Source: an uncultured Gammaproteobacteria bacterium
Lineage (GTDB): Bacteria; Patescibacteriota; Patescibacteriia; UBA9934
Reading direction: 5' to 3'
Length of the DNA: 33,237 bases
Assembly (NCBI GenBank): GCA_964491425.1
Contig: CAZBFR010000002.1
Location: forward strand, 1-33,237
Below, piece after piece: positions 1,137 to 33,237 of the stretch. The notes below the pieces were generated by a model, which saw nothing but the letters and a program-made list of their open reading frames with translations, was not told the origin of the DNA and did no database searches. Each line of letters opens with the position of its first letter. Within the stretch, counting starts at the first letter, position 1. Made by a program: the position numbers and the translations under genes.

Positions 1137-3392
1137 ATGGAAAAACAACGATTTACAACAAAGGTAGGGGAAAAAGAATTGATTATTGAGGTGGGAGCAT
1201 TTGCGCAATCCGCAAACGCGTCCGTCCTTGTACAGATGGGTGAGACGGTCGTTCTTGCGACGGCGGTTATGAGTTCGGAAACCCGTGATATGGATTTCTT
1301 CCCGCTCATGGTTGAGTACGAAGAGAAGCTTTACGCGGCGGGACGAATTAAGGGGTCACGCTTTATCAAGCGCGAGGGTCGACCGACCGACGAAGCGGTT
1401 CTTGTTGCGCGCTTTATTGACCGTGCAATCCGCCCACTCTTTAACGGAAGTATTAAGAACGAAGTACAAGTCATTGTTTCCGTTCTTGCGTTCGACGAAG
1501 AACATGACCCGGATATTCTCGGGCTCATCGGAGCATCAGCGGCACTCCATATCAGCGATATTCCATGGAATGGACCGATCGGAGCGGTGCGTATGTCGAA
1601 GATTTCGGAAAACTGGATTTTCAACCCGACCTACACCGAGCGCCTCACAACAAAATTTGATCTTGACCTTGCCGGTACACCGGAAAAAATCGTGATGATC
1701 GAGATGGAGGGGGATGAAGCGAAGGAAGACGAACTTCTCGAAGCGTTCAAGCTTGGAGGCGCATCGCTCAAGCCGGTAATTGAACTTATCGAGACCGTTC
1801 GCGCACAAGTTGGAAAGCCGAAAAAGGATCTTCTTACACCAAAAAATGACGCTGAAAAGGCAAAACGCGAAGAAAAAGAAGCGCTTATCGCCGAGGCTCG
1901 AACGTTCCTACGCGAGCGAATGGCAGATCTCTTTTTCTCGGCGCCTATTACAAAGAAGTCCGTACGCAATGAAAAGAAAGATCAGCTTAAAGCGGAAACA
2001 ATTGCTCACTTTACGGAAAAGGGATGGACTCCGGACCAAATTAAGGTTGCGACAGGGCTTATTTACGACTTCGTTCAAGAGGAGGCTTCGCGTTACATTA
2101 TCGAGAAGGGGCAACGTATCGACGGTCGAGGAATCGAAGAAATTCGACCGCTTACAATCGACGTCGGGATCCTTCCTCGTGTTCACGGATCGGGTCACTT
2201 CAACCGCGGAGGCACGCAGGTTCTCTCGATCTGTACACTTGGAGCCCCTGGAGATCAACAAACGCTCGACGGAATGGAGCTCGTTGGGGAAAAGCGTTAC
2301 ATGCACCACTACAATTTCCCTCCGTTCTCGGTGGGGGAGGCGAAACCGCTTCGAGGAGCGTCTCGCCGTGATATTGGACACGGAGCGCTCGCCGAAAAGG
2401 CTGTACGCCGAATGCTTCCGGAAAAGGAAACCTTCCCGTACACGATTCGCGTCGTTTCCGAAGTCCTCGACTCGAATGGTTCATCGTCGATGGCCTCAAC
2501 CTGTGCCTCAACCCTCGCCCTTATGGACGCCGGTGTTCCGCTTCGTAAACCGGTAGCGGGTATCGCGATGGGACTCGCTTCAAACGGAAGCGCCTACCGC
2601 GTTATTACCGATCTTCAAGACGTGGAAGACGGCCAGGGAGGAATGGACTTTAAGATTACGGGAACAAAGGACGGCGTAACCGCAATCCAAATGGACACAA
2701 AGACCGAAGGATTAACAATGGAAATCATTGCGCAAACCCTTACACAAGCGTACACCGCGCGTCTTTCAATCCTTGACGCGATGGCAAAGGTAATCGCCGA
2801 GCCACGAGCAGAACTCTCGCCAAACGCTCCACGTATCACGAGCCTCACGATTAATCCGGAAAAGATCCGAGAAGTGATCGGACCGGGAGGAAAGATGATC
2901 AACGAGATCATTGAAAAAACCGGTGTTGTTTCGATCGATATCGAACAATCAGGACTCGTTATGATCACCGCGAAAAACGGAGAGTCGGCGAAAAAAGCCT
3001 TCGATTGGATCCACAACATGACCCGGGAGATCGAAGCGGGAGAGCTTTTCGAAGGAACGGTAACGCGACTTATGGACTTTGGAGCATTCGTTGAATGCCT
3101 TCCTGGAAAAGAAGGTCTCGTGCATATTTCCGAGCTCGCCCCTTGGCGAGTCGCGAAGGTCGATGATATCGTACAGGTCGGAGACAAGGTTAAAGTAAAG
3201 GTCATTGAAATCGACGACATGGGTCGAACCAACTTGTCGATGAAACAAGCGGAAGGCAACGTCTACACCGAGGAAATGAAGGCAAAGGCCGCAACCGGAG
3301 CACCAGCCGGAAGACCGCAAGGTGGTGGAAGGCCACAAAGACCACAGGGAGGCCAAGGACCGCGCGGACCTCGACGACCGTTCTCTAGATAA
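1137..3392 (+). CDS. pnp: Polyribonucleotide nucleotidyltransferase (PNPase)
   Basis: 751-aa ORF with two RNase PH-like domains, a KH domain (GPGGKMINEI) and an S1 domain (G.V.R...FGAFVE). It ends in an R/G/P/Q-rich tail. Confidence 0.97.
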   Translation: MEKQRFTTKVGEKELIIEVGAFAQSANASVLVQMGETVVLATAVMSSETRDMDFFPLMVEYEEKLYAAGRIKGSRFIKREGRPTDEAVLVARFIDRAIRPLFNGSIKNEVQVIVSVLAFDEEHDPDILGLIGASAALHISDIPWNGPIGAVRMSKISENWIFNPTYTERLTTKFDLDLAGTPEKIVMIEMEGDEAKEDELLEAFKLGGASLKPVIELIETVRAQVGKPKKDLLTPKNDAEKAKREEKEALIAEARTFLRERMADLFFSAPITKKSVRNEKKDQLKAETIAHFTEKGWTPDQIKVATGLIYDFVQEEASRYIIEKGQRIDGRGIEEIRPLTIDVGILPRVHGSGHFNRGGTQVLSICTLGAPGDQQTLDGMELVGEKRYMHHYNFPPFSVGEAKPLRGASRRDIGHGALAEKAVRRMLPEKETFPYTIRVVSEVLDSNGSSSMASTCASTLALMDAGVPLRKPVAGIAMGLASNGSAYRVITDLQDVEDGQGGMDFKITGTKDGVTAIQMDTKTEGLTMEIIAQTLTQAYTARLSILDAMAKVIAEPRAELSPNAPRITSLTINPEKIREVIGPGGKMINEIIEKTGVVSIDIEQSGLVMITAKNGESAKKAFDWIHNMTREIEAGELFEGTVTRLMDFGAFVECLPGKEGLVHISELAPWRVAKVDDIVQVGDKVKVKVIEIDDMGRTNLSMKQAEGNVYTEEMKAKAATGAPAGRPQGGGRPQRPQGGQGPRGPRRPFSR

Positions 3393-3393
3393 C

Positions 3394-4485
3394 ATGGACA
3401 ATCTCTCAATTTCACTTACAGAGCGCAGGGCCCGCCAAACAGAATGGCGGGTTTTTGCGATTAGTCTCGCCTCCGGAGTCCTATTTGCCGTATTTCTTTT
3501 CGTGTTTTTTGCCCTGACGCAGTCTCTTCGTACGATAAGTAGCGTAGCGGACGAGCAAGTCGAAACGATCGCGTTCAAAAATACCCGAAGTGCGAAGGCT
3601 CTCGCGTATACACTCACTCTACCTATCGATAAGACGCCATTTTCGCTCAACGAACTCGTCGATACGCGAGCAAAGAGCATTGCGTTCCACTATAAAGAGG
3701 GGGCCTTCGTCGGTTTTTCACTCGACCACGCGCCAGAGTCCATTCTTTCAAAAGCGGTTACAGCGGGACTCGTCGCACAAACGAACGACGGCATTACAAC
3801 AATTACCGTCGTTCCAATTTCACTTTCGAATAATCCAAAATCGCCCTTCGTTTTCCGCACACTCTTCTCTCAGGGACTACATAAGAACGAATTGGGACAA
3901 TCAAGAGTTACGCTCAAACGAGGGAGCCTTACTTTGTCAACCGGAAGCACTCCGTTTACGACAAATTCTGCCCATTTACCAAGTGGCAGTGTTGTGACCG
4001 CGGTAAGTAATACCAGCGGATCTGAATTAATTTACGGCATGGGTCCTTACCGACTTATTACAGGATCAATTGGCGAAAGTCCGTTTTTCCATTTAACAAC
4101 ATCGTCCATACTACAAACGGACAGCCTTATCGAGATAGGTGCCGAACTAAGCGCTCGAACTGTTTTGTCTACGCAGGCGTTGACAACAGAAGATGGGTTT
4201 TTTAGAGAGCACGTAAACGGAAAACGAACCGAGCCGGTAATAACAAGCGACGGGGACATCACTACAATAACGTTTAGCGCCAGATCAACCGCAATCTACA
4301 TCGTAAAAACCCAAGAAATCACAACAATTACAAATATTCCACCGTCTCCAGAGCTTGTTTCATACGATGTTAAGAGCGCTTGCCTTAAAAGGGCGCATAG
4401 TTTTGCTCTCAATTCAGAATCATTTACGTCACCAATCGTCAAAGAACTCGCAGAAAGCAAGAAACGTCTTCGAATCTGTTTTTAA
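3394..4485 (+). CDS. Hypothetical membrane-anchored protein
   Basis: ATG at 3394 lies 1 nt after the pnp stop. One N-terminal hydrophobic helix (WRVFAISLASGVLFAVFLFVFFAL) is followed by an S/T-rich domain. I recognise no family. Confidence 0.6.
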   Translation: MDNLSISLTERRARQTEWRVFAISLASGVLFAVFLFVFFALTQSLRTISSVADEQVETIAFKNTRSAKALAYTLTLPIDKTPFSLNELVDTRAKSIAFHYKEGAFVGFSLDHAPESILSKAVTAGLVAQTNDGITTITVVPISLSNNPKSPFVFRTLFSQGLHKNELGQSRVTLKRGSLTLSTGSTPFTTNSAHLPSGSVVTAVSNTSGSELIYGMGPYRLITGSIGESPFFHLTTSSILQTDSLIEIGAELSARTVLSTQALTTEDGFFREHVNGKRTEPVITSDGDITTITFSARSTAIYIVKTQEITTITNIPPSPELVSYDVKSACLKRAHSFALNSESFTSPIVKELAESKKRLRICF

Positions 4486-4491
4486 CAAGAA

Positions 4492-4566
4492 CTGTGGATA
4501 ACTTGTGGGATATGCATAAGTTATCCACAGGAATTAAAAAAATGTGTGAGAAAAATTGTCCACACA
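4492..4566. promoter_or_regulatory. Cluster of DnaA-box motifs, ectopic at about 7 kb from dnaA
   Basis: Perfect TTATCCACA on the minus strand at 4493-4501 and on the plus strand at 4521-4529. They sit inside a perfect 12-bp inverted repeat (4492-4503 and 4519-4530). TTGTCCACA lies at 4557-4565 and a degenerate copy at 4504-4512. An AT-rich stretch (4531-4600) follows. Confidence 0.55.
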
Positions 4567-4601
4567 TTAGAAAAACCCTTTATTTTCGAACTATTTTGTT
4601 G

Positions 4602-4629
4602 TTGACTATTTGTGTTCAAGGTTTATACT
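4602..4629 (+). promoter_or_regulatory. Near-consensus sigma70-type promoter
   Basis: TTGACT (4602-4607), 16-nt spacer, TATACT (4624-4629). The predicted transcript start is near 4636. Confidence 0.55.
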
Positions 4630-4635
4630 AATAGT

Positions 4636-5008
4636 AGTTCCTTCAACAATTCCCGTTTGCCGGGTTCGCCGGCATGACACGGGGGAGGTTCCCCGAATCC
4701 CACACCTGAAAGTCAGCTGCTTTCGGGACAATCGTTCGGGGCACATCCCACTACTGTACTGTGATGCTTGTGCACTGGGGGTGCACACACATCAGGTTTG
4801 CGCGCAAAGGCCCGTAGACCACTTCATGGTAGAGTAGGATGTCAGTTTTTACATGGTATGCGCGCCGACTGGCCACTGCGTTGTTCCGATCAAGAAATTG
4901 GTCGTAAAAACCCAGTGACCACGAACGGTGTCAACCGTGTCGTGGGCACTACCGCTCCGGCCTATCTTAGAAAAAGCCGCGAGCAACCGTGCCCTCTTTC
5001 TTTTTCTA
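4636..5008 (+). ncRNA. Candidate structured non-coding RNA or long structured 5' leader, family unassigned
   Basis: About 400 nt with no credible ORF, and not AT-rich, unlike other spacers here. Strong local helices: 4705-4712/4720-4727; 4762-4775/4781-4794 (12 bp with a symmetric internal loop); 4887-4893/4898-4904 capped by a GAAA tetraloop; 4914-4929/4934-4950 (15 bp). The region ends in a T-rich tract near 4995-5008. The ends are approximate. Confidence 0.35.
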
Positions 5009-5078
5009 AAATTTTACCCATTTTCTTGCCATGGAAGGCCGTCTAGGCTATGCTGACCCATATCCTAACCCTGTCCTT

Positions 5079-5465
5079 ATGGCAAAAACAAAAGCTCACA
5101 GCGAGGCATTCGTTTCCGAAATGCGAACCGTCCTACAGAAAGAAAAGGAAAAGCTAGCCGCCGCCCTTAGCCGCCTTTCAAACAAGAACTCGTCAACAAA
5201 TGCTTACGAGGCACATTTTCCTGACTACGGGGACGATGAGGACGAAAATGCAATCGAAATCGCGGATTACACAAACAATATTCAAGTTCAGCAAGAACTT
5301 GAAAAGGCAGTTCGAGATGTCGATACGGCACTTGATCGGATAGACAAGGGCGTGTACGGAATTTGCAAATACACGGGCGAACTTATCAGCGAAGACCGAC
5401 TTCGAGCCCGTCCAACCTCCACTTCATCTGTCGCTAGTAAAAAAACCCTTACTCAAGAACGATAA
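5079..5465 (+). CDS. DksA/TraR-family-like protein with a degenerate zinc finger
   Basis: A coiled-coil region is followed by ...ALDRIDKGVYGICKYTGELISEDRLRARP..., which fits the DksA/TraR C-terminal pattern. Only one of the four Cys residues is present. An alternative start is the ATG at 5031. Confidence 0.6.
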   Translation: MAKTKAHSEAFVSEMRTVLQKEKEKLAAALSRLSNKNSSTNAYEAHFPDYGDDEDENAIEIADYTNNIQVQQELEKAVRDVDTALDRIDKGVYGICKYTGELISEDRLRARPTSTSSVASKKTLTQER

Positions 5466-10219: not shown

Positions 10220-10480
10220 CTGATAATTACCGTTCACGCAAAACCAAAAAGCAATCGCACCCGTCTTCTTTCAATCGAAGAATCGGGTGCGTTTGTTATT
10301 GCGCTCCGTGCGCCCGCGGAACGCGGCCTTGCAAATAAGGAGCTCGTTCAGTTTCTTTCTAAAACACTGGGGATTCCTAAAACCTCAATCCATTTTCTCT
10401 ACGGGATGTCGGGAAAAACAAAGCACTTAAGTCTCCCGGACGAAACAAACCTCGAGGCGCTACGGGTGATCGATTCGTGA
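10220..10480 (+). CDS. DUF167 (YggU-like) protein with no canonical start codon
   Basis: The frame is open from 10199 to 10480. It reads LIITVHAKPKSNRTRLL...VIALRAPAERGLANKELVQFLSKTLGIPKTSIHFLYGMSGKTKHLSL, which fits the DUF167 pattern (ApP..GkAN.el..fL). The only possible starts at the N-terminus are CTG 10220, ATA 10223 and ATT 10226. The ORF track does not list this ORF. Confidence 0.65.
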   Translation: MIITVHAKPKSNRTRLLSIEESGAFVIALRAPAERGLANKELVQFLSKTLGIPKTSIHFLYGMSGKTKHLSLPDETNLEALRVIDS

Positions 10481-10699
10481 CGTTGCAAATGGATGACAAC
10501 GAAGAATCCGTCTACTTCCTCGAAAAATCCCAGAAATAACCCCGTACTTTAAAATTGCTTCGGCCGTATATTCGGAACAACTTGGATAAAATCGACAGGC
10601 GCCGAACGGGTAGAGGACCGAGAGAAGCCCGTGATCTGGCGATAGGGTCTTTTGGTAAAGGCGAATCGGGAGGACAACGAGCCGACGAAGGGCGTTCAT
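10460..10699 (-). CDS. yidD: Membrane protein insertion efficiency factor YidD
   Basis: 79 aa. YQKTLSP......CRFYPSCSEY......G...G......RILRCHPF is the YidD signature. The position downstream of rnpA is canonical. Confidence 0.9.
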   Translation of the reverse strand: MNALRRLVVLPIRLYQKTLSPDHGLLSVLYPFGACRFYPSCSEYTAEAILKYGVISGIFRGSRRILRCHPFATSRIDHP

Positions 10700-11037
10700 A
10701 GAAGCTTCGCGCGCGTTAAAAGACTCTCAATGCGCGATCGTTTCTCAGCAAAACTTAATTCAAGCGAAGGTCGCGAGACAAGAAGGAGAACGTCAACACC
10801 CGCCTTCGGCTCACGGATCATTTCCCTTACAATTTCTCGATACTGGCGTCGCAAGCGATTACGCTCTACGGCCCGTTTACTTACCTTTACGCCAACAATG
10901 AACGCAATCCGCATAGGATCACTATCTCCACGACGATACACCTTAACGCCAACCGCGGAATCGTAAACACTTTGGCCTTTTTTATAGGCGCGCTCAATAT
11001 CGGTTGTTTTACGAAGTCGGTGATTTGCGATTTTCAT
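10696..11037 (-). CDS. rnpA: Ribonuclease P protein component
   Basis: 113-aa basic protein (...SKRAVERNRLRRQYREIVR...). It sits between rpmH and yidD, and its stop overlaps the yidD start by 4 nt. Confidence 0.9.
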   Translation of the reverse strand: MKIANHRLRKTTDIERAYKKGQSVYDSAVGVKVYRRGDSDPMRIAFIVGVKVSKRAVERNRLRRQYREIVREMIREPKAGVDVLLLVSRPSLELSFAEKRSRIESLLTRAKLL

Positions 11038-11077
11038 ACCGCTAGAATAACAGAAAAAGAAGGGGTTGTCCCTTCTT

Positions 11078-11230
11078 TTATCTTGGCCGAGCCGACACGG
11101 TAAGACGCTTTCGTCCTTTCGCCCGTCGTCTCTTTAGGACAACGCGTCCTGTCGCTGATTTCATCCGCTTTCGGAATCCATGGACTTTTGCGCGTCGTCG
11201 CTTTTTCGGCTGATAAGTGCGCTTTGGCAT
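11078..11230 (-). CDS. rpmH: 50S ribosomal protein L34
   Basis: [50 protein letters not shown], starting at the ATG whose reverse complement is at 11228-11230. The longer 179-aa ORF in the track is an upstream read-through. Confidence 0.95.
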
Positions 11231-11243
11231 AAAATGTAGACTG

Positions 11244-11272
11244 ACTATAGCACTAGGGCCCTTTTCCGTCAA
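11244..11272 (-). promoter_or_regulatory. Putative rpmH promoter
   Basis: On the minus strand: TTGACG (11272-11267), 17-nt spacer, TATAGT (11249-11244). The start codon is 13 nt downstream of the -10 box. Confidence 0.5.
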
Positions 11273-11283
11273 CAAACCCCCGC

Positions 11284-11370
11284 TTGTCCACAGTTTAGTC
11301 GACTTATCCACAAAGTTATCCTCAAAATCCACACAAATGGCCGGCTTGTGAGCTGTGGATATGTGGTATA
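11284..11370. promoter_or_regulatory. DnaA-box cluster, the likely oriC DnaA-assembly region and dnaA autoregulatory region
   Basis: Boxes: TTGTCCACA 11284-11292; TTATCCACA 11304-11312 (perfect); TTATCCTCA 11316-11324; AAATCCACA 11325-11333; reverse-oriented ATATCCACA 11354-11362; a weak TATACCACA 11362-11370. The cluster lies in the divergent rpmH-dnaA spacer. Confidence 0.65.
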
Positions 11371-11419
11371 TGATGACCCCGTCGTCACTAATTTGGAGGG
11401 GATTCCCCGACTCATGCTT

Positions 11420-12850
11420 ATGAACACCCACGAACTGTGGCAAGCCGCCCTTGGCGAGCTTGAACTCAAACTTAGTAAGGCCCAATTCACTACTTGGTTT
11501 AGAAACACGTTCATCGCGAATGTGACCGATCAGGGATTTACCATCGCTGTTCCAAACACGTTCACGAAAACCTGGCTCGAGAAGAAATTCCATCGAGACA
11601 TCCTCCAAACACTCCAATCAATTACCGAGCAAACGATTCGTACACTCGAGTACCGTATCGAAACACGGCCAAGAGAGCCCGAGCCAGTCATTTTTGAAAA
11701 ACAACAACCGACCGAGAAACACGTCTACCTAGATATCCGCCCAGAACGAAGCGAAGAGACCGCTCAAGATCTCGGATTTACGAGCGAAAGCTTCGCGGGC
11801 TCCGAAGGAACGGGTTTTGATAAGGCTGGGGGACTTAACCGCCACTACGTATTTGATAATTACGTTGTCGGTAAACAAAACGAACTCGCACACGCGGCGT
11901 CCCAAGCCGTTGCCGCACAACCAGGAGGAACCTACAATCCACTTTTTATCTATGGAGGCGTAGGACTTGGAAAAACCCACCTCCTCCACGCCGTTGGAAA
12001 TGAAATCCTTCGAAGAAAACCGGGGAGCCGAGCTCTTTACGTAACGTGTGAAACGTTCACAAATGATTTTATTCAAGCAGTGCGCGGAGGAAAGGCAAAG
12101 GAATTCAAGGATCGCTACCGAAACGTAGACGTTCTTCTAATCGACGACATCCAGTTTATTACCGGAAAAGAAGGAACCCAAGAGGAGTTCTTTCACACCT
12201 TTAATGCTCTCCACCAAGAAAACAAACAAATCGTTATTTGCTCAGACCGCGCGCCAAAAGTCATTGCCGGCCTAGAAAAACGTCTTCTTTCGCGTCTTGA
12301 ATGGGGAATGCTTGTTGATATCGGCGCCCCAGACCTTGAAACACGAATCGCTATCCTCCACGCAAAGTGCCTTAACCGAGGAGTCCACTTCGAACGCGAA
12401 ATCCTCCACTATATTTGCGAGAACATCCAATCAAACGTCCGTGAACTCGAAGGAGCCTTGAATAAAATCATTGCCTGGCACCAATTTAAGAACCTCAAAG
12501 CGACGATTGATTCGATCAAACCCCTTATCGCAAGCTACGGATCGGATTCAATGAAGAAAACAATCTCTCCAAAGCAGATTATTATCACCGTTTCCGAGTA
12601 CTTCGATATCGACATGGACCACGTTCTAGGTAAAAGCAGAGAAAAGCGCCTCGCCTTCCCGCGACAAATTATTATGTATCTTCTTCGAGAAGAAATGAAG
12701 AGTTCCTACCCATCAATCGGTCAAGAACTTGGAGGACGTGACCACACAACAGCAATGCATGCCTACTCAAAGATTAAAGAGATGGTTGCGGAAAGCGAAA
12801 CCCTAAAACGAGACATCGAATTAATCAAACAAAAGCTCTACGCGACCTAG
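11420..12850 (+). CDS. dnaA: Chromosomal replication initiator protein DnaA
   Basis: [27 protein letters not shown]..., Walker [11 protein letters not shown], box VII, and the C-terminal DNA-binding signature ([12 protein letters not shown]). Alternative starts are 11414 and 11348. Confidence 0.95.
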
Positions 12851-13043
12851 GGATAACCCTGGGGGTAAGTAAGGGGACAAAGAGGGTAGATCAAGGAGGC
12901 TGAAAGCCCCTCAAAACTTCTCCCCAACTCGTACCACGGTCGACTACACCAAGAGCCCACAGGCCACGTCACGTAAAACCCACGTCCCGCAAGCTCCGTT
13001 CACGTTATCCCCTCCGTCCACACCCCTTACTGTTATTACTGTC

Positions 13044-13070
13044 TTATATATAAAATATTTAAAATAAAGA
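13044..13070. other. AT-rich tract, a candidate DNA unwinding element
   Basis: TTATATATAAAATATTTAAAATAAAGA lies immediately upstream of dnaN. Degenerate DnaA-box-like 9-mers precede it at 13005-13013 and 13014-22. Confidence 0.3.
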
Positions 13071-13073
13071 ACT

Positions 13074-14219
13074 GTGAAAGCATCCTGTACACAAGAGAAC
13101 TTACAAAGGGGGCTAGCAATCGTTTCAAGGGCAAGTACGAAAAACGTTAATCTTCCAATTCTCAATAATGTTTATATAGAAGCGGACGCCTCGGGAATTC
13201 AACTTGTTACAACAAACCTCGAGCTTGCCATTTCTTGTTCAATAAGAGGAAAGGTGGATCAGCAGGGAAGTTACACCGTTCCTTCAAAGCTTTTCTTTGA
13301 CGTTGTGTCACTCCTCCCAAACGACCGCGTCGATCTCGATCTCTATGACGATACGCTTTTTATCGCTTCTAAAAAAACGAAGACGAAGATGAAGGGAATG
13401 CCGTCCGCGGATTATCCGCTTGTTCCACCGGTTGAAGGTGGGGTTACATTTGGACTTTCTATTACGGCGCTCAAGGAGGCTCTCTCGCAGGTCATCTTCG
13501 CTTCTGCGACGAACGAGTCGCGTCCGGAGCTCGCGGGGGTTTATATCGCGTTTAATCACCTCGAGGAGGGCGAGGGGTCGGTAGTCTTTGCCGCGACAGA
13601 TAGCTATCGCCTAAGCGAAGTCGTTTCTCGCGTCTCGTCAGGTCCAAAGGAACCGATCTCGGTTATCGCGCCAAGTCGTACACTTGCCGAGGTGTTGCGG
13701 ATCATTTCCATGTACCAAGATGAACCGGACGCACCACCAACGGTTGACCTCCACCTCGGAGAAGGGCAGATGGTGTTTTCCTACGCGAATATCAAAGTTA
13801 CGAGTCGAACGATTGAAGGGCAATATCCAAATTATCGTCAAATCCTTCCAAAGGATAAGAAAACGGAAATTCTCCTTTCGAAGAAGGATTTTGCGCAGGC
13901 GATTAAGACCTCGAGTCTTTTTTCACGGAACGGACTAAACGACGTCGCGATTAAGATCCGAGAATCCCTCGACGGAATCGACTTGCAGGGGGCGGATGCA
14001 GCCCGCGGAGAGAATACGATTGGAATTGACGGACCTGTCGACGGCGAGGCAAAAAACATTGTTCTTAACTATCGCTACCTTCTCGACGGCGTGAATGCGA
14101 TTGATGCGGAGGAGCTTGTTCTTGGAGTCCTTGATAAAGATCGCCCTTGTACCCTCGTTCCTCGCGTTATGCCCGAAGACCGTCGTCAGATTTACTTGAT
14201 CATGCCTATTCGGCAATAA
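13074..14219 (+). CDS. dnaN: DNA polymerase III beta sliding clamp
   Basis: 381-aa ORF with a GTG start, immediately downstream of dnaA. It shows typical beta-clamp features (...ATDSYRLSE..., ...EGQYPNYRQILP...). Confidence 0.95.
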   Translation: MKASCTQENLQRGLAIVSRASTKNVNLPILNNVYIEADASGIQLVTTNLELAISCSIRGKVDQQGSYTVPSKLFFDVVSLLPNDRVDLDLYDDTLFIASKKTKTKMKGMPSADYPLVPPVEGGVTFGLSITALKEALSQVIFASATNESRPELAGVYIAFNHLEEGEGSVVFAATDSYRLSEVVSRVSSGPKEPISVIAPSRTLAEVLRIISMYQDEPDAPPTVDLHLGEGQMVFSYANIKVTSRTIEGQYPNYRQILPKDKKTEILLSKKDFAQAIKTSSLFSRNGLNDVAIKIRESLDGIDLQGADAARGENTIGIDGPVDGEAKNIVLNYRYLLDGVNAIDAEELVLGVLDKDRPCTLVPRVMPEDRRQIYLIMPIRQ

Positions 14220-28498: not shown

Positions 28499-28515
28499 TT
28501 ACGTTCCGCTCCCGC

Positions 28516-30420
28516 TCACAGGCCGGTGAGGACGGGGGCGACCTTCGTCTCGAGGCAGTACGCGCGGTGCTCGCGATCGGGAATCGCGAGTTGGCGCTCT
28601 TCCTGCGTCATCTCGAGCAACCTGTCGGTCGTCGGGCAAGGGAAGACGTACGGATCCGCCAGTTCTTTTGCCGAGTCGATGACCGCCGCTGATGCGATGA
28701 GGACGAGCGGGGTGATACAAAGGATGAGCGTTCCCATCCACGCAACTTTCCACGCGTACGACTTCCAGAAGCCAAGGCTTTGAAGGCGCTTTTCCTCGTA
28801 GGACATCCAACGCGCGGTTGTTTGCCACCACTCGAGAAAAGCGACACTTCCCGTTGCGAGTACGGTGATCAGGATCGCGATTTCACCCGCGAGAATGCCC
28901 TGAAAGGTTGCTCCTGGAACGGTGGCGATGACCACAGACGGAACGAGCACCGCGATGGGGATGTAGATGACGCTCATCCCGAGCATGGTGTAAATCGCTC
29001 CGCCGCTCAGCCAGTGAGGATTTCTCCTCATAGGCTTGCTCCATCGCCACTCCTCGCGGTCCTTCGCCGACAAGGCATCGTTCGCATTTCCGCCCGGGAG
29101 GAGCCCCTGAGCGAATTTGGGGACGATGGACTTGAGGACGCTTCCGGGCGTGGTTCCCGTAAAGTGCCGGCCATCAACCTGGTTTCGCAGTTCATCCACG
29201 AGGTGTGCGAGAACTCCGAAGAGGTGCCGCCCCGGGAAAAACAGCGTCCACCCCGTGAACATCATCGCCACCGAAGTGAACGGACCCAGCCAAGGGGATC
29301 CAAACAGGAGGTGCGCGACTTCGACGAGGCCTGTGACGTAGATGGAGAGGCCCGCTCCCATCAAGAGAAACGGAGCCAGGAACATGAGGAGCGGGAGTGC
29401 GGCGCGCTTCCAGAAGTACCACGACCAGATGAGGTCACGGACGTTGTCAGCGCTGTCCGCGAGTCGTTCCCCGCCACCGGCGTTCAGGAGTCGATCGGTC
29501 ACGACGCCCTGGGCCGTGATCGCGATCGACTGCAGGAAACTCGGCTGAGGCCCATGAATGCGGATCGCGGTGAACACGCCTCGACAAGCATCGAGCATGC
29601 GCTCGACCTCGTCTTGAAGGTTGTTGAAGTTGTTGCGATCGGCCGGCTCCAGGATGTCCTTGTTCGCTTTCTGAGCCTCGCGCGCCAACGTCCCTTCGGG
29701 AGTATCCATGGAGGACGTGTCCCGACGCTTCTGGTACAAGCTCGTCATGATCTCGGTCATGTTCTCAAACTTGTTCAGTGTCGCCATCTTGGCTTCGAAC
29801 TCGGCCTCGGACATGTCCGGAATCGCAAGCGCCACCTCTTCGAGGCTCAGCGCTCCGTTCCTGATCTGGTGCATGAGTCGCCACCAGCGGCTCGATCCGA
29901 TCCGCCTGTACCATCCTTGGTTGCGCAGGTCGATCAGGTAGTCCATGACGATGAGGAACCGCAACTGACCCGGCCTCAAGAGAGGAGCCTTGACCATCGT
30001 CCGGTACTTGATCGGCATCGCTTCTTCGAGGAATCCGGCGAACTCGTCGACCGTGAGCTTGCGCTTTTCGGTCTTCGCTTTGGCGACGGCGTCGATGAAT
30101 CCGACGACCGCACCACTGCCGAGCATTCGTACGCCCTGCACCCCGTAGGTTGCCATGGATCCAAGTACTCGGTACTTCGGTCCAGCGATTCTCGGGATCA
30201 GGCCCTCGAGGAAAAACGCGACCCAGTCGATGAAGAGCGGGACGTGTTCGAGCGGGATCTCTTCGATGGCGTCGGGGATCCAGTCATAGACCTTCTCAAT
30301 CGACGCGGCACCGAGGTTGCGTGTAATCTTTTCTGCACGCTCGCGGTACTTCTCTGCGGCGGCACCGATGCCGGCCTTGGTAAGGAGATCGAAGGCTTCT
30401 GAAATAGAGACGGCACCCAT
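28516..30420 (-). CDS. Large polytopic membrane protein of unknown family (634 aa)
   Basis: AAGGAGG lies 6 nt upstream of the ATG whose reverse complement is at 30418-30420. A soluble N-terminal region of about 345 aa is followed by multiple hydrophobic helices (e.g. ALPLLMFLAPFLLMGAGLSIYVTGLV, IYIPIAVLVPSVVIATV, AILITVLATGSVAFL). The track ORF extends to 30528. Confidence 0.7.
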   Translation of the reverse strand: MGAVSISEAFDLLTKAGIGAAAEKYRERAEKITRNLGAASIEKVYDWIPDAIEEIPLEHVPLFIDWVAFFLEGLIPRIAGPKYRVLGSMATYGVQGVRMLGSGAVVGFIDAVAKAKTEKRKLTVDEFAGFLEEAMPIKYRTMVKAPLLRPGQLRFLIVMDYLIDLRNQGWYRRIGSSRWWRLMHQIRNGALSLEEVALAIPDMSEAEFEAKMATLNKFENMTEIMTSLYQKRRDTSSMDTPEGTLAREAQKANKDILEPADRNNFNNLQDEVERMLDACRGVFTAIRIHGPQPSFLQSIAITAQGVVTDRLLNAGGGERLADSADNVRDLIWSWYFWKRAALPLLMFLAPFLLMGAGLSIYVTGLVEVAHLLFGSPWLGPFTSVAMMFTGWTLFFPGRHLFGVLAHLVDELRNQVDGRHFTGTTPGSVLKSIVPKFAQGLLPGGNANDALSAKDREEWRWSKPMRRNPHWLSGGAIYTMLGMSVIYIPIAVLVPSVVIATVPGATFQGILAGEIAILITVLATGSVAFLEWWQTTARWMSYEEKRLQSLGFWKSYAWKVAWMGTLILCITPLVLIASAAVIDSAKELADPYVFPCPTTDRLLEMTQEERQLAIPDREHRAYCLETKVAPVLTGL

Positions 30421-30518
30421 TTGGGGCCTCCTTGTGCATCTCTGCACGGCTTGGAGTTGAATTCTAAAGGGCTGTTGTCGCCCAAATTCGGCTAATCCGA
30501 AAGTAAGTACGACGCTTA

Positions 30519-30598
30519 AAAATAGCACAAAATCAAGGATTTGTCAACCAAAAGTTACGTTTGCAGGGTTGACAAAATGACGATTTTCTGCTATCTTG
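30519..30598. promoter_or_regulatory. Palindromic bidirectional promoter
   Basis: Plus strand: TTGACA 30569-30574, 17 nt, TATCTT 30592-30597. Minus strand: TTGACA (30547-30542), 17 nt, TATTTT (30524-30519). The perfect 9-bp inverted repeat is TTGTCAACC (30541-30549) and GGTTGACAA (30568-30576). The two arms match at about 25 of 31 positions. Confidence 0.55.
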
Positions 30599-30635
30599 CA
30601 AAGTCGTGAAACCTTTCACTGGAGGCCTAAAAGCC

Positions 30636-31175
30636 ATGCGAATCATGACGTTTGTCCTTTTAATGGCCATGGCGACGGAAGTCGCCGTGGCGCAGAGCAA
30701 CAGTTCCCCGCAGACCATGACGGTCTGTACGGAGACCATGAAGGAACAGCGGGTGCTCGGCATTCCGTTTCGGACGAAGCGCACGCAGTGTAATACCAAC
30801 ACGATTTCGGGCACCGTGCCCGTGGTCGGAGGTGGTCTCGGAATGGCGCCGGTCGGAGTCTACGCTCCGCGGTGTCCCGAGTGCGTGACGTCGCAGACAA
30901 TCGCGTACATCCGGGACGACCAGGTGCGTTCGGCGGATTTGGCGGCGGCACGCATCGCCGAGCTCCAAGCCGAGCTCGCGCGAGAGCGGGCGCGGACAAG
31001 TCGGACCGTTTCGGGATCAACTTCCTCTCGTACGGGTTCGACGGCCCAGACCACGACTACGCCCGTCGTCCCAGCGGTTCCCGCGAAGACGCCGGCCCAG
31101 ATCGCGGCCGAAGAGGCGGAGCGGCGGCGCCGTGCCGCCGAAATCCTCCGCGAGGAAGCGGGAGGTGCCCCGTGA
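30636..31175 (+). CDS. Secreted hypothetical protein: 4 Cys, a coiled-coil segment and an S/T/P-rich linker
   Basis: GGAGG (30621-30625) lies 10 nt upstream of the ATG. The signal-like N-terminus is MRIMTFVLLMAMATEVAVAQ. I recognise no family. Confidence 0.6.
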   Translation: MRIMTFVLLMAMATEVAVAQSNSSPQTMTVCTETMKEQRVLGIPFRTKRTQCNTNTISGTVPVVGGGLGMAPVGVYAPRCPECVTSQTIAYIRDDQVRSADLAAARIAELQAELARERARTSRTVSGSTSSRTGSTAQTTTTPVVPAVPAKTPAQIAAEEAERRRRAAEILREEAGGAP

Positions 31176-31786
31176 ACGATCTCTTCATTGGTCCCCGGAC
31201 CCTGATCGGCATCGCTGCGGCCGTAGTGTTCTTCGCGAACACCTGCGACGCACAGACCCTCCGTCCCGAGGACCTCGTCGGAGAAGCGTCCTACGCCGAT
31301 CCGAAGTTCTGCTACGTGGGCGGAAAGCCCTCGGGGTGGGACGAGGAGCCCGGCCAATTCATCCTCGAGAACCAACTGCGTCAACCGCTGGTGCCCCGCA
31401 TCGGCGAAGACGTGGTCTGGATTCTTGAGCCTCCAGCAGGACTCTTCGGAGACCCGGTCTTCACCAGGCTTCCGAACGGGATGATGCAGGTGAGTAAAGC
31501 TCGCGTCCGCGCGGAAGCTCTCACCGATACTGGCGAGCACGTCAGTATCCTCGGCCCGAACGAGATCTGCTACGGGGCAGGTCTGCGCGAAGGTGAGTAC
31601 TTGGTCACCGGGACCATGTACCGGCTCTCGCAGAACCAGCCGAACGTCAACATTCCGGGAGTGGGTTACAACCTGCTCTCGAATCGGATCCAGCTCTGGA
31701 AGACCGGAAGGCCTTCCAGGTGGAACTCGGACGGGATCTCGCTGCTTCGAGAGCAGTTCCAGTCCTACGAGTTCGCGGGCGGTTGA
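31172..31786 (+). CDS. Secreted hypothetical protein, translationally coupled to the upstream gene
   Basis: The GTG start overlaps the upstream TGA (GTGA at 31172-31175). GGGAGG (31160-31165) lies 6 nt upstream. The signal-like N-terminus is VNDLFIGPRTLIGIAAAVVFFANTCDAQ. Confidence 0.6.
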   Translation: MNDLFIGPRTLIGIAAAVVFFANTCDAQTLRPEDLVGEASYADPKFCYVGGKPSGWDEEPGQFILENQLRQPLVPRIGEDVVWILEPPAGLFGDPVFTRLPNGMMQVSKARVRAEALTDTGEHVSILGPNEICYGAGLREGEYLVTGTMYRLSQNQPNVNIPGVGYNLLSNRIQLWKTGRPSRWNSDGISLLREQFQSYEFAGG

Positions 31787-31833
31787 GACCCCAAGGCGCG
31801 ATTTGTTCCGCGCACGTCTAGAACAAAAAAAGT

Positions 31834-31862
31834 ACGCCCCACCGACACGTGTCGGGGGGCGT
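31834..31862. terminator. Bidirectional terminator at the right edge of the GC-rich island
   Basis: ACGCCCC(A)CCGACA-CG-TGTCGGGGGGCGT, with a perfect 14-nt palindrome at 31842-31855. An A-run (31824-31830) lies upstream and T-rich sequence downstream. Confidence 0.6.
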
Positions 31863-31879
31863 TCTTGTATTCTCGCTAC

Positions 31880-32272
31880 TTATGTACCAGCGTCGATTCC
31901 GGCCTCGGTGATTGCCTCGGTCACAAAGGTTGTGATTGCGTAGGCAGCGAGGATGATTACGAGACCAATCACTGCGTTTTGCATTAGTTTTTGCGCTTGT
32001 CCGGCCTTTTCATCGCTTCCTCCAGACGTCATCCAAAGGAATCCGGCGTAGATAATCATGATTAAGAAGATAATACCGAGGATTGAAAGGAAGATTCGGA
32101 TTCCGCTTCCAACGACCGTTTCAAGATCGGCGCTTCCAAGCCCACCCTCCTCGGCGATATCTCCCGTAAAGCTTCCGAAACCGTCAAAACCCTGTGCTTT
32201 TACCGGCGTTGTGCTAACAAGGGGGAGAAGAAGGGCCATTCCAAGGACGAGAAATGAAATAAATCGTTTCAT
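31880..32272 (-). CDS. T4SS-pilin-like (TrbC/VirB2-like) small membrane protein, paralog 1
   Basis: 130 aa with a signal peptide (MKRFISFLVLGMALLLPLVSTTPVKAQ). Two TM helices flank the motif YAGFLWMTSGGSDEKAGQAQ. Confidence 0.7.
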   Translation of the reverse strand: MKRFISFLVLGMALLLPLVSTTPVKAQGFDGFGSFTGDIAEEGGLGSADLETVVGSGIRIFLSILGIIFLIMIIYAGFLWMTSGGSDEKAGQAQKLMQNAVIGLVIILAAYAITTFVTEAITEAGIDAGT

Positions 32273-32341
32273 AGGTATTGTTAATTGGCTTTATTGTAGC
32301 ATATCCGTAAAATACAAAAAGGACTTTTTCCCCCGCTGTGG

Positions 32342-32370
32342 ATTATACCAAAAAACGCCGTTAAGGCGTT
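32342..32370 (-). promoter_or_regulatory. Terminator of pilin paralog 2 followed by an extended -10 promoter of paralog 1
   Basis: On the minus strand, the hairpin AACGCC-TTAAC-GGCGTT (32370-32354) is followed by a T-run and then TGG-TATAAT (the TATAAT hexamer is the reverse complement of 32342-32347). The stop codon of paralog 2 lies in the hairpin loop. Confidence 0.4.
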
Positions 32371-32783
32371 TGGGGTGTCGTGGTCGCCGGAGCGTCGCTT
32401 TCGGCTAGTCCGCTCGACTGGAGCGCTCGTTCAACGAAGAGGGTGATCGAATAAGAGGCGAGAATGATAATGATACCGATGATACAGTTTCTTATAATCC
32501 CTTGAGCTTGTTGTACTTTTTCCTGCGTTCCGCCCGCCGTCATCCAAAGAAATCCCGCGTAGAGAATATAGAAAAGGAGAACGACGCCGAGAAGCGATAG
32601 CGCTATTTGTATACCGTTACCGATAAGCTCAACGAGCGTTGGCGCGGTGTTAGCAGAACCAAAAACTGCAGCCCCCGCCTTGTCAAATTCATCTAAAATA
32701 TTTGCCTGCACGCGTAGTTGAGCAAATGCCTTGGCGGGAACAATGAAGGCTAGTCCACCCAAAAGTAAATAAAATCGTTTCAT
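32361..32783 (-). CDS. T4SS-pilin-like small membrane protein, paralog 2
   Basis: The start is taken at MKRFYLLLGGLAFIVPAKAFAQ (the ATG whose reverse complement is at 32781-32783). The motif is YAGFLWMTAGGTQEKVQQAQ. Confidence 0.7.
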   Translation of the reverse strand: MKRFYLLLGGLAFIVPAKAFAQLRVQANILDEFDKAGAAVFGSANTAPTLVELIGNGIQIALSLLGVVLLFYILYAGFLWMTAGGTQEKVQQAQGIIRNCIIGIIIILASYSITLFVERALQSSGLAESDAPATTTPQTP

Positions 32784-32787
32784 AGTA

Positions 32788-33168
32788 TTAGCTAGTCGGA
32801 TTCGCTCCGCCTGTTGCGGCCATGATAATAAATCGCGTAATCGCGTAGGCGGCGAGGATAATAACAAGACCGATAACGGCGTTACGGAAAACCCCCTGCG
32901 CCTTCGTTACTTGCTCTTCTTGGCCACCGGCGGTCATCCAAAGAAATCCCCCATAGATCATCAAAAGAAGAAAGGCGACGCCGGTTAGGGCGAAGAGGGG
33001 ATTGATAATACGTGCACCGACGAATGTTCCGATCGAGGCGTTTGCTCCGAGTTGGCCAAAGACCGCTACACCGGTTGTCGTAAGCCCCGTGTCATCTACC
33101 GAAACCTGTGCAAAGGCAAATTTTGGCATGAAAAGAAACAGCCCGAGAAGGAAGAACGCTTTTCTCAT
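32788..33168 (-). CDS. T4SS-pilin-like small membrane protein, paralog 3
   Basis: The start is taken at MRKAFFLLGLFLFMPKFAFAQ (the ATG whose reverse complement is at 33166-33168). The motif is YGGFLWMTAGGQEEQVTKAQ. Its stop lies 4 nt before the start of paralog 2. Confidence 0.7.
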   Translation of the reverse strand: MRKAFFLLGLFLFMPKFAFAQVSVDDTGLTTTGVAVFGQLGANASIGTFVGARIINPLFALTGVAFLLLMIYGGFLWMTAGGQEEQVTKAQGVFRNAVIGLVIILAAYAITRFIIMAATGGANPTS

Positions 33169-33237
33169 AGCGAAAGGGGACCTAAATCCCCAATCGTCAG
33201 GAGGAAAACTAGATGTTGTTTGCCGCGTCAAGGAGCG

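Follow-up and report, generated by a model that had tools for sequence, protein, structure and literature searches.

To our knowledge very few classes of large bacterial RNA have been described, and every one that has been solved disclosed new biochemistry. The raiA motif RNA, OLE, ROOL and GOLLD are large structured non-coding RNAs of bacteria whose function is unknown or was found only recently; they run to hundreds of nucleotides, consist of several domains supported by covariation, are restricted to particular lineages, carry their own promoter and terminator, and emerged from comparative genomics with no obvious function. The RNA that we describe here shares these properties (in its case probably with a pseudoknot in the fold), but it matches none of the four in sequence or structure in Rfam 15 and, unlike them, lies in Patescibacteria, downstream of predicted DnaA boxes and upstream of a dksA-like gene. 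The boxes recall the DnaA-box clusters found outside oriC (the B. subtilis clusters and the paired DnaA sites of E. coli), which regulate adjacent promoters or titrate DnaA: here too, two or three consensus boxes stand close together between genes and beside a promoter, not far from the origin yet not part of it. Unlike at the known clusters, the gene next to the boxes encodes a large structured RNA, and the positions of the predicted boxes are kept across a bacterial class. Attenuating leaders (riboswitches, T-box) offer a further parallel, as they also lie upstream of and co-oriented with one gene, and end in an intrinsic terminator whose 5’ strand can pair alternatively with an upstream segment (here S2), itself in competition with another helix. 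The present RNA is much larger than such leaders, has a near-consensus promoter and no known aptamer or T-box match, and in many of its loci, unlike in theirs, there is a separate promoter-like site for the downstream gene. Our best explanation, to which we would give an even chance, is that positions 4636–5007 (+) are a stand-alone gene for a stable structured ncRNA of about 370 nt that would form a new family, probably abundant and with a DnaA-tuned promoter.

The window, by which we mean the whole stretch of 33,237 nt that was analysed, contains an ORF-free gap that ORF calling places at 4486–5030, as a first-pass annotation of this DNA had it. The gap really reaches 5078, since alignments with DksA homologues begin no earlier than the second Met of the downstream DksA/TraR-like gene, at position 5079; this gene, the constant downstream neighbour of the RNA (5079–5465 (+)), probably starts there and not at 5031. 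Genes on both sides of the RNA have the same orientation. The near-consensus promoter reported earlier is indeed present: the promoter of the RNA occupies 4599–4629 (+), with a −35 element TTGACT (4602–4607) and a −10 element TATACT (4624–4629), and TTGACT-16-TATACT (4602–4629 (+)) is of sigma-70 type and matches 10 of 12 consensus positions. The motif TGTGTTCA within the promoter spacer (4612–4619) is kept among homologues, and TGTTGAC...TGTTCA and the −10 element are nearly invariant in a 29-sequence alignment. At the other end lies an intrinsic terminator (4944–5007 (+); GGGCAC 4944–4949 / GUGCCC 4989–4994, an inner stem, then UCUUUCUUUUUCU) that folds at −24.1 kcal/mol (z = −3.6), with an outer stem 86% paired with compensatory changes and a T-run after the stem in nearly all homologues. 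Promoter and terminator bracket the RNA and both are kept among relatives; from them we infer the two ends of the RNA gene (4636–5007 (+), about 370 nt with the terminator U-tract included). The terminator, and three DnaA boxes at 4493–4564, had been missed in the first-pass annotation. Between the terminator and the dksA-like gene there is a promoter-like site for the latter, TTGCCA-17-TATGCT (5026–5054 (+)).

Homologous loci were gathered via DksA, with about 5 kb taken per relative, and only two came from matches to a DNA pattern: a metagenome scan with GGGGARGTTYCCCGAA was unspecific, and two of its 120 loci were true homologues, on metagenome contigs with the same synteny. A profile HMM, whose match in the window spans 4630–5005 and is the sole copy within these 33 kb, found full-length homologues in 38 and then in 41 of 79 species-level Patescibacteria genomes. 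All of the homologues are on the + strand, between pnp or a variable ORF and dksA-lspA-comM. Magasanikbacteria have a sequence-diverged counterpart with the same layout; the profile HMM failed to connect these RNAs to the Uhrbacteria type, and the link is based on shared DnaA boxes, promoter, 5’ motif, GGU...AAACC...GGUAGAG module and terminator. As far as seen, the family would be restricted to Uhrbacteria-like Patescibacteria (candidate phyla radiation, CPR), with this diverged counterpart in Magasanikbacteria.

Covariation in homologous intergenic regions, proposed as a check in the first-pass annotation, is clear across about 40 related genomes, and together with comparative conservation it is the decisive evidence for structure beyond chance. 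The + strand of 4630–5030 folds at −153.4 kcal/mol, whereas its dinucleotide shuffles average −123.2 ± 5.4, which gives z = −5.6, and none of 100 shuffles did as well; compensatory changes support a conserved secondary structure, with no conserved ORF, and the pairs of highest mutual information lie in helices. The + strand is fixed by the orientation of promoter and terminator and by the abundance of G-U pairs, GU20/GC12 and GU16/GC14 among them. All of the helices listed in the first-pass annotation are in the sequence and its stems were recovered in minimum free energy folds, but the palindrome TTTGCGCGCAAA at 4797–4808 was not. The RNA can be divided into three domains. The 5’ domain contains a 15-bp hairpin, the middle one is closed off by a helix that covaries, and a long hairpin, the stems S1 and S2 and the terminator make up the 3’ domain.

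The RNA begins with a 5’ motif, GUUCYUUC-ACAAU (4637–4650 (+)), whose G, U, C, U and U do not vary across 29 sequences and which is also found behind the promoter in Magasanikbacteria-type loci. Pairing of this motif with GGAAG (H0) was considered against pairing of GGGG with UCYC; the two do not exclude each other, and since the nucleotides involved never vary, neither pairing is informative. Helix H1 (CCCGU/ACGGG, 4652–4683 (+)) encloses a hairpin of variable length (GCCGG 4659–4663 / CCGGC 4669–4673) and is 67% paired in the MAFFT alignment, with CG-to-UA changes; its 3’ strand shares Gs with an extension of H3. The latter, a long hairpin at 4682–4749 (+) (GGGG-AA-GUUYCCCGAAG / CUUCGGGRAAU-A-UCYC, with a conserved CCCAC loop), is predicted by RNAalifold to have 15 pairs, seven of them with compensatory changes, and its core is 98.3% paired. 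The stem noted earlier at 4705–4727 is present within H3, but as a lineage-specific insertion confined to the window and its closest relative, L002.

The middle domain is closed by H4, with a 5’ strand CUACUGUAC (4751–4759 (+)) and a 3’ strand GUAGAGUAG (4829–4837 (+)) that belongs to the conserved GGUAGAG motif. Its pairs covary (GC18/UA8/AU6/UG1 with no breaks for pair 7-159, AU28/GC4/CG1 for pair 12-154), and its strands are about 70 nt apart in the window and about 100–130 nt apart in relatives. Inside it, hairpin B1 (4762–4794 (+)) has an outer stem UGAUG/CAUCA, an inner stem GUGCAC/GUGCAC and a UGGGG loop; the outer stem covaries when read from the sequences (GUUC/GAAC in most relatives, GAUG/CAUC in the window), and distant family members have an A-rich linker in place of the hairpin. 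Stem ‘g’ (4795–4820 (+)) follows as a GGU...AAACC module around a variable stem, ahead of the GGUAGAG motif, and a GGUN-A-[stem]-(C/A)AAA-(C)ACC arrangement can be read from Magasanikbacteria-type sequences as well.

In the 3’ domain, the long hairpin (4870–4921 (+)) has helices that are 93% and 88% paired (pair 50-102 is GC22/AU11, pair 52-100 UA23/CG8/AU3) and an invariant GAG/CCC core in a UGAGUU/AACCCAG motif, where an A usually stands opposite C and the window has C at 4879; G46, G48, C78, C79 and C80, as numbered in the row of the homologue L028, are invariant. Its apical stem (4887–4904) is the GAAA-capped stem of the first-pass annotation, of which the GAAA loop is not conserved. Stem S1 pairs 4861–4867 (+) (consensus GACGCCG, CGCGCCG in the window) with the highly conserved CGGUGUC at 4926–4932 (+); it is 70% paired (CG15/UA8 for pair 39-122), and one subclade has GGUAC/GUAACC in its place, as read from the sequences. 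Stem S2 pairs CCACGA (4919–4924 (+)), which overlaps the final three nt of the 3’ strand of the long hairpin, with UCGUGG (4940–4945 (+)), which has its GG in common with the terminator 5’ strand. A hairpin claimed earlier at 4914–4950 is present, but it is really the conserved S2 plus an inner hairpin that competes with S1 (4861–4867/4926–4932). Judging from the aligned sequences, S2 is under selection: in a partner-swap test the native mean was 12.5 and the swapped mean 10.5 ± 0.36, and none of 300 swaps reached the native value. MAFFT aligns without regard to structure, and on its alignment S2 is only 61% paired. Among homologues S2 shares 2–5 nt with the terminator 5’ strand and 2–6 nt with the lower long hairpin, and in the window only 2–3 nt, a small overlap that could equally reflect stacked helices or refolding after 3’ processing. 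Because S1 and S2 interleave, we propose that they would form an H-type pseudoknot, S2 being supported by covariation and S1 partly so. Over the 3’ domain, 81–82% of cells pair, compared with 65% in shuffles and 37–47% with slid partners, and the covariation score is 0.44–0.48 compared with 0.19.

The Rfam check proposed earlier was run with cmscan and Rfam 15 on both strands, at gathering thresholds and at E<=10, and gave no credible match for the window, the isolated RNA or 12 homologous loci, the permissive matches being chance-level ones to eukaryotic or unrelated families. The first-pass annotation had failed to find the cores of the size-matched RNase P RNA and tmRNA, and we agree: when the isolated RNA was searched, even a cutoff of E<=10 gave no Rfam match to RNase P, tmRNA, 6S or SRP, and ARAGORN, permuted tmRNA forms included, found none in the window or in 79 genome loci. 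The likeness to tmRNA lies in size and in a fold that probably includes a pseudoknot; the present RNA lacks a tRNA-like domain, a CCA-adjacent T-arm and a tag reading frame. No Rfam cis-regulatory family (riboswitch aptamer or T-box) matches at the position of the RNA, and 6S, SRP, group I/II introns and the T-box were rejected on architecture and absent Rfam matches. A search of the literature found no description of the RNA. By these comparisons the family is new, matching no catalogued RNA family.

Upstream of the RNA, three predicted DnaA boxes lie within 72 bp, about 75–140 bp before the inferred RNA start. Boxes 1 (4493–4501 (−)) and 2 (4521–4529 (+)) are perfect copies of TTATCCACA; relative to the 5’ motif, box 1 is kept at about −155 in most homologues and box 2 at about −127 in Uhrbacteria-type homologues; box 3 (4556–4564 (+), TTGTCCACA, about −91) has one mismatch here and is perfect in many relatives. 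These offsets are fixed in about 45 loci and the boxes are kept in nearly all of the homologues; in Magasanikbacteria-type loci boxes are found at about −185/−152. A perfect 9-mer box is expected by chance about 0.009 times per 1.2 kb, and the whole window has 12 matches to TTATCCACA compared with 4.7 expected. The promoter of the RNA sits in a stretch of about 100 bp with 29–30% GC adjoining the boxes. The origin itself, oriC, is at the rpmH-rnpA / dnaA-dnaN junction, about 6.8 kb from the RNA locus, where rpmH-rnpA-yidD diverge from dnaA-dnaN and four more boxes are found (11284–11362); the GC-skew minimum is at about 12–14 kb. Placement of oriC at the RNA locus was considered and rejected, as the skew minimum and the dnaA-dnaN junction point to about 11–13 kb and the RNA flanks are co-oriented.

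Because the 3’ helices share nucleotides with the terminator, the main rival to a stand-alone gene is a leader of exceptional size that would act in cis on the dksA-lspA-comM operon, as an attenuator or a riboswitch-like sensor; we think this rather unlikely. By default the long hairpin would form, then the terminator, and transcription would stop; a factor or ligand would refold the RNA so that S2 pairs with the terminator 5’ strand and dksA is read through, and the DnaA boxes would regulate dksA expression. Such a leader would explain why linkage to dksA and co-orientation hold in every locus seen, even in L012 with its inverted upstream genes and in the two homologues that the DNA pattern brought up, and why the distance from terminator to dksA start is mostly 40–140 nt. 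It is also consistent with the selection on S2 and with the two alternative partners to which segment 2 (CCUUCACG in L005, CUCUUCACG in L009) is complementary, one upstream in the long hairpin and one downstream, the latter overlapping the terminator 5’ strand by 2–5 nt, and with the 18 of 35 terminator-to-dksA spacers in which no promoter-like site was recognised. At the same time, a sensor of about 300 nt would exceed every known riboswitch aptamer, known aptamer or T-box signatures were not found with Rfam, and the near-consensus promoter is of the kind that stable-RNA genes have. The overlap of S2 with its neighbour helices in the window is merely 2–3 nt, and certain spacers reach 300–650 nt with no inserted gene. 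Moreover, the other 17 of the 35 spacers do contain promoter-like sites, where five would be expected (about 3.4-fold more), and Magasanikbacteria-type loci have strong consensus TTGAC-17-TATACT promoters at the place of the dksA promoter; transcription from such sites would bypass a leader. Among the points that count against a stand-alone gene are that every homologue found immediately precedes the dksA-like gene in the same orientation, as a leader would, that the 3’ helices overlap in the 1:2 / 2:3 / 3:4 pattern typical of attenuators, and that about half of the spacers have no recognisable dksA promoter. On balance a stand-alone gene seems more probable than a dksA leader.

The remaining alternatives are weaker. 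The RNA might be the RNase P RNA of this organism, too diverged for covariance models, which we consider improbable. Diverged RNase P RNAs are reported for part of the candidate phyla radiation, and a size of about 370 nt, clade-wide conservation, a single copy and a strong promoter and terminator are all reminiscent of rnpB. The genome encodes RnpA (10696–11037, about 6 kb off) and must therefore have an RNase P RNA, and none was detected in the 33-kb window. Short sequence resemblances can be found as well (the 5’ GUUCUU as in Bacillus rnpB, GGGGAAGUUUCC compared with GAGGAAAGUCC, CAGAACCCAGCG compared with ACAGAACCCGGCU), which by a rough estimate we take to be at chance level. In a study of 35 complete CPR genomes, RNase P RNA was detected in 10 only after the RF00010 threshold had been lowered, but with this model it was recovered, many conserved features included, from every genome of the set, five of which are of class ABY1 (Lui et al. 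2021, PMC8172020). Here, RNase P models at E<=10 found nothing, whether run on 801 nt, the 381-nt RNA by itself, its L028 homologue or the 12 loci. The topology is also wrong for bacterial RNase P RNA (RF00010/RF00011), with no helix joining the 5’ and 3’ ends (no P1, P2 or P4), no complement to the 5’ motif near the 3’ end as read from the sequences, and no CR-I/CR-V pairing: the CR-I-like GGGGAAGUUUCC is the 5’ half of the strongly covarying local 15-bp hairpin H3, and the CR-V-like AACCCAGCG is the 3’ strand of the local long hairpin, where it pairs with CGCUGAGUU. A manual mapping of P1–P4, CR-I/CR-V and the L15 GGU was rejected on these topological grounds. Somewhat less probable still is a role in replication, in which the locus would be a DnaA-titrating or secondary origin-like site activated or primed by the transcript (R-loop or primer), or the RNA would modulate DnaA. 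The three conserved predicted boxes beside an AT-rich promoter region and the proximity of dnaA would fit, as would the existence of other origin-proximal, cell-cycle-regulated ncRNAs, of which Caulobacter CcnA is one (PMC8959179). Against this, the GC-skew minimum and the rpmH-rnpA/dnaA-dnaN genes put oriC at about 11–13 kb and not at 4.5 kb, the flanking genes run in one direction, the fold of the RNA shows no tie to DnaA, and the selected RNA base pairs are far from the boxes and would be superfluous in a purely DNA-level element. Finally, a decayed or small protein-coding gene, or chance folds in a GC-richer spacer, can practically be dismissed. The region does hold ORFs of 60–92 aa, but the 75- and 92-aa frames, already judged not protein-like in the first-pass annotation, have no Pfam match, and no reading frame is kept among homologues, where the longest stop-free stretch (46–137 aa) shifts in frame and strand; the pseudogene check proposed earlier gave no protein signal. 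Moreover, helix substitutions are compensatory and indel lengths are not multiples of three.

The first-pass annotation had suggested either a novel structured ncRNA of about 370 nt or a dksA leader, a pair of readings that our analysis supports, with the stand-alone gene favoured. As such a gene, the RNA would act in trans as a folded molecule, perhaps as a protein-binding scaffold or a catalytic RNA, and DnaA on the predicted boxes would tune its promoter, coupling RNA synthesis to replication-initiation status. The nucleotides common to the long hairpin, S2 and the terminator may then serve a 3’-end maturation or refolding step, or allow occasional read-through. More tentatively, and with somewhat less than an even chance, the RNA may represent a new class: a large, probably pseudoknotted housekeeping RNA of class ABY1 (Uhrbacteria, Magasanikbacteria), DnaA-gated, working as an RNP scaffold or ribozyme and possibly with a 3’ switch that sets read-through into the dksA operon.

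In the candidate phyla radiation, genomes measure about 1 Mb and contain little non-coding DNA, and an RNA of about 370–400 nt is likely important because it has been kept at one locus, class-wide, in such small and compact genomes. It offers handles for further work in its predicted DnaA boxes at fixed positions, its covariation-backed domain architecture and its competing 3’ helices, and hundreds of metagenome-assembled genomes could be annotated better with a covariance model of it. If true, a DnaA-gated RNA would link replication status to gene expression in minimal genomes, and would open a direct route to the wiring between replication status and RNA function in organisms not yet culturable alone.

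ORF calling left 4486-5030 free of credible genes, as the first-pass annotation had described, and the only ORFs within this gap (60, 75 and 92 aa, the latter two judged non-protein-like in that annotation) have no Pfam match. The near-consensus promoter it proposed, TTGACT-16-TATACT at 4602-4629 (+), matches 10 of 12 consensus positions and is nearly invariant (TGTTGACAATATGTGTTCAA...TATAAT) in a 29-sequence alignment of homologues, where the element ends in GGGCGC...GCGCCC and then a T-run. In the window the terminator pairs GGGCAC (4944-4949) with GUGCCC (4989-4994) on the + strand, followed by UCUUUCUUUUUCU (-24.1 kcal/mol, z = -3.6); across the 35 aligned sequences of the 3' domain, 86% pairing and compensatory changes are seen in the outer stem of the terminator. 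From the positions of promoter and terminator we infer an RNA of about 4636-5007 (+). The annotated start of the downstream DksA/TraR-like gene (dksA; longest ORF, 5031) is probably too far upstream and the real start 5079, because homologues (~126 aa) align only from this second methionine and because a promoter-like site at 5026-5054 overlaps the N-terminal extension (5031-5078); the gap would then be ~590 nt. The spacer between -35 and -10 contains TGTGTTCA (4612-4619), nearly invariant among Uhrbacteria-like (Uhr-type) loci, an unusual degree of conservation for this part of a promoter; it forms an imperfect inverted repeat with TTGACA, is absent from the diverged Magasanikbacteria-type promoters, and could serve as an operator bound by some other factor.

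At Rfam 15 gathering thresholds, tRNA-Cys is the sole match in the window. With the cut-off relaxed to E ≤ 10, region 4400-5200, the isolated RNA (4630-5010), the L028 homologue and 12 homologous loci gave only chance-level matches to unrelated families, with none to RNase P, tmRNA, 6S, SRP, an intron or a riboswitch. ARAGORN was negative for tmRNA on the window and on 79 genome loci. A protein-coding gene was rejected as well: the stop-free stretches span 46-137 aa, and their frame and strand vary among homologues.

The source names of DksA homologues place the organism among the Patescibacteria (CPR), near Uhrbacteria and Magasanikbacteria. The whole gap proved to be conserved upstream of dksA in 30 of 79 loci compared (nhmmer; one locus per GTDB species, gathered via alignment of DksA homologues). 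Iterating the profile brought the count to 38 of 79, and three further loci came from a profile based on the most divergent members. Every match lies on the dksA strand, in the order pnp, variable ORF, element, dksA, lspA, comM, and the window contains one copy of the element. Two of 120 loci from a metagenome scan by 16-mer are true homologues with identical synteny; the 16-mer itself proved unspecific. Upstream of the RNA, a 387-aa ORF (3322-4485) overlaps the pnp 3' end by ~70 nt, has no Pfam domain, and in relatives shows 22-50% identity or is undetectable; it is predicted to be a fast-evolving protein of conserved position. An NYN-domain protein (predicted RNase) is encoded at 451-1131, between rpsO and pnp, and RNA-metabolism genes are thus abundant upstream of the RNA.

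Region 4630-5030 folds at -153.4 kcal/mol on the + strand, compared with -123.2 ± 5.4 in dinucleotide shuffles (z = -5.6), and the - strand fold has z = -4.4; frequent G-U pairs fix the + strand. All of the hairpins listed by the first-pass annotation exist in the sequence, and minimum-free-energy folds recover all except the palindrome. Its 4705-4727 stem is real, but it is an insertion in the loop of helix H3 that only the window and one relative (L002) carry. The proposed structure is backed by compensatory changes in H3, H4, the long 3' hairpin and the terminator, and the top mutual-information column pairs of an HMM alignment map to helices. The 5' domain (+) holds the conserved motif GUUCYUUC-ACAAU, helix H1 enclosing a variable-length hairpin, an invariant GGGGA, and the H3 hairpin (15 predicted pairs; core 98% paired; double changes at 7 pairs), with a conserved CCCAC in its loop. 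H4 closes the middle domain, pairing CUACUGUAC (4751-4759) with GUAGAGUAG (4829-4837) on the + strand across ~70 nt in the window versus ~100-130 nt in relatives; one of its pairs is GC18/UA8/AU6/UG1 with zero exceptions, another is AU28/GC4/CG1, and an inner extension is CG18/UA12.

Within the 3' domain, the helices of the long hairpin are 93% and 88% paired (e.g., GC22/AU11, UA23/CG8/AU3), with an invariant GAG/CCC core inside a UGAGUU/AACCCAG motif where A usually lies opposite C. Stem S1 (GACGCCG/CGGUGUC) is 70% paired, one position being CG15/UA8, and S2 is 61% paired on a MAFFT alignment in which it aligns poorly. An alignment-free partner-swap test gave S2 a native score of 12.5 versus 10.5 ± 0.36 for partners swapped between genomes, and none of 300 swaps reached the native value. 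Since S1 and S2 interleave, the two pairings would form an H-type pseudoknot. Across the 3' domain overall, pairing is found in 81-82% of cells, as opposed to 65% when shuffled and 37-47% with slid partners, and the covariation score is 0.44-0.48 versus 0.19 shuffled. Neighbouring conserved helices share nucleotides (4682-4685, 4746-4749, 4919-4921, 4944-4945): overlaps occur between H1 and H3 (in the GGGG/UCYC extension of the latter), between H4 and the CCA/UGG hairpin, between S2 and the long hairpin, and between S2 and the terminator. This sharing, together with a position in H4 where U has become C (GGCAGGG) and both candidate partners carry the compensatory change, hints at alternative conformations.

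DnaA boxes and gaps of 600-1100 nt are also found upstream in many of the dksA loci that no HMM matched. Ten of Magasanikbacteria type (L012, L013, L033, L035, L038, L042, L043, L046, L049 and L069) share a TTGACA-17-TATACT promoter, a GTTCYTT motif ~10 nt downstream, and ~400 nt of gene-free sequence ending in a terminator, with the dksA match about 400-600 nt downstream of the element. At least six of the ten have a second consensus promoter, for dksA, and the DnaA boxes of the ten, at ~-185 and ~-152, are placed like those of the most divergent Uhr-type members. Read by eye, both types have a GGUN-A-[stem]-AAA-ACC ... GGUAGAG-like 3' strand module and an A-rich linker (AAAACAAAAAC in the Magasanikbacteria-type non-coding stretch). 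No profile HMM joins the two groups, so it is their layout that points to homology.

Taken together, the evidence favours a stand-alone gene encoding a stable structured RNA whose family is uncatalogued, given the near-consensus promoter and conserved terminator, and a size and multi-domain, probably pseudoknotted fold that exceed known cis-regulatory sensors. The region beyond the terminator argues the same way: spacers to dksA reach 300-650 nt in some relatives, and 17 of 35 spacers carry promoter-like sites for dksA after the terminator, where 5 would be expected; in Magasanikbacteria-type loci these are strong consensus promoters. The spacers of two relatives, L015 (1866-2500) and L041 (2175-2491), hold no convincing ORF. 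The RNA may work in trans, either scaffolding proteins or as a catalyst. The main rival, a cis-acting leader of dksA, is less likely, at about one chance in four; every copy seen among these loci, which were collected by way of DksA, does lie upstream of, and co-oriented with, dksA, and the overlap of the 3' helices resembles that of an attenuator. In locus L005, GAAGGUCG pairs with CGACCUUC as the long hairpin, CCUUCACG with CGUGAAGG as S2, and the terminator is GAAGGGAA...UUUCCCUUC. Such overlap could be an antiterminator switch or, just as well, reflect refolding once the 3' end has been processed.

A diverged RNase P RNA is far less probable still. RnpA is encoded in the genome, and Lui et al. 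2021 (PMC8172020) report CPR RNase P RNAs that standard thresholds had missed, but the same study recovered RF00010-type RNAs in all of its genomes, five of them of class ABY1. No RNase P model matched the RNA or the homologues scanned here, even at E ≤ 10. Moreover, the P1/P2/P4 closure is missing from the topology, and the stretches resembling conserved regions CR-I and CR-V each sit in local covarying hairpins.

Three DnaA boxes precede the RNA: perfect matches at 4493-4501 (-) and 4521-4529 (+), and one with a single mismatch at 4556-4564 (+), the promoter following closely. The 29-sequence alignment shows hardly any variation in them, and their offsets from the 5' motif are fixed in Uhr-type loci (-155, -127, -91). 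These 4.5-kb boxes were considered as oriC and rejected, the origin-type gene layout lying at ~11 kb and the cumulative GC-skew minimum at ~12-14 kb. There, dnaA (11348-12850) and dnaN (13074-14219) diverge from rpmH (11078-11215, -), rnpA (10696-11037, -) and yidD (10460-10699, -), and four further DnaA boxes (11284-11362) overlap the dnaA start, so that 10460-14219 has the appearance of a classical origin region. With the origin at ~11 kb, the 4.5-kb boxes are predicted to be a second, origin-proximal DnaA site adjoining the RNA promoter, which may be tuned by DnaA occupancy. Elsewhere in the window, 28500-33237 has a GC content of 0.58-0.59 (0.46-0.52 in the rest) and overlapping long ORFs on the two strands that lack Pfam hits, including one (-) for a membrane-like, multi-pass protein of 670 aa. 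Three paralogous small membrane proteins there have the motif GGFLWMTAGG in common (31880-32272, 32361-32867, 32788-33231). The segment is possibly an island of foreign origin or one connected with secretion or pili.

As analogies, the large orphan RNAs raiA, OLE, ROOL and GOLLD and the origin-proximal cell-cycle RNA CcnA of Caulobacter come nearest, as do, for the locus, DnaA-box clusters outside oriC; none is related in sequence or structure. The family is undescribed in the literature searched, and we rate it as new and uncatalogued. It is of interest mainly because the RNA is so large, is conserved although the genomes are minimal, and shows a coupling to DnaA boxes that is conserved as well.
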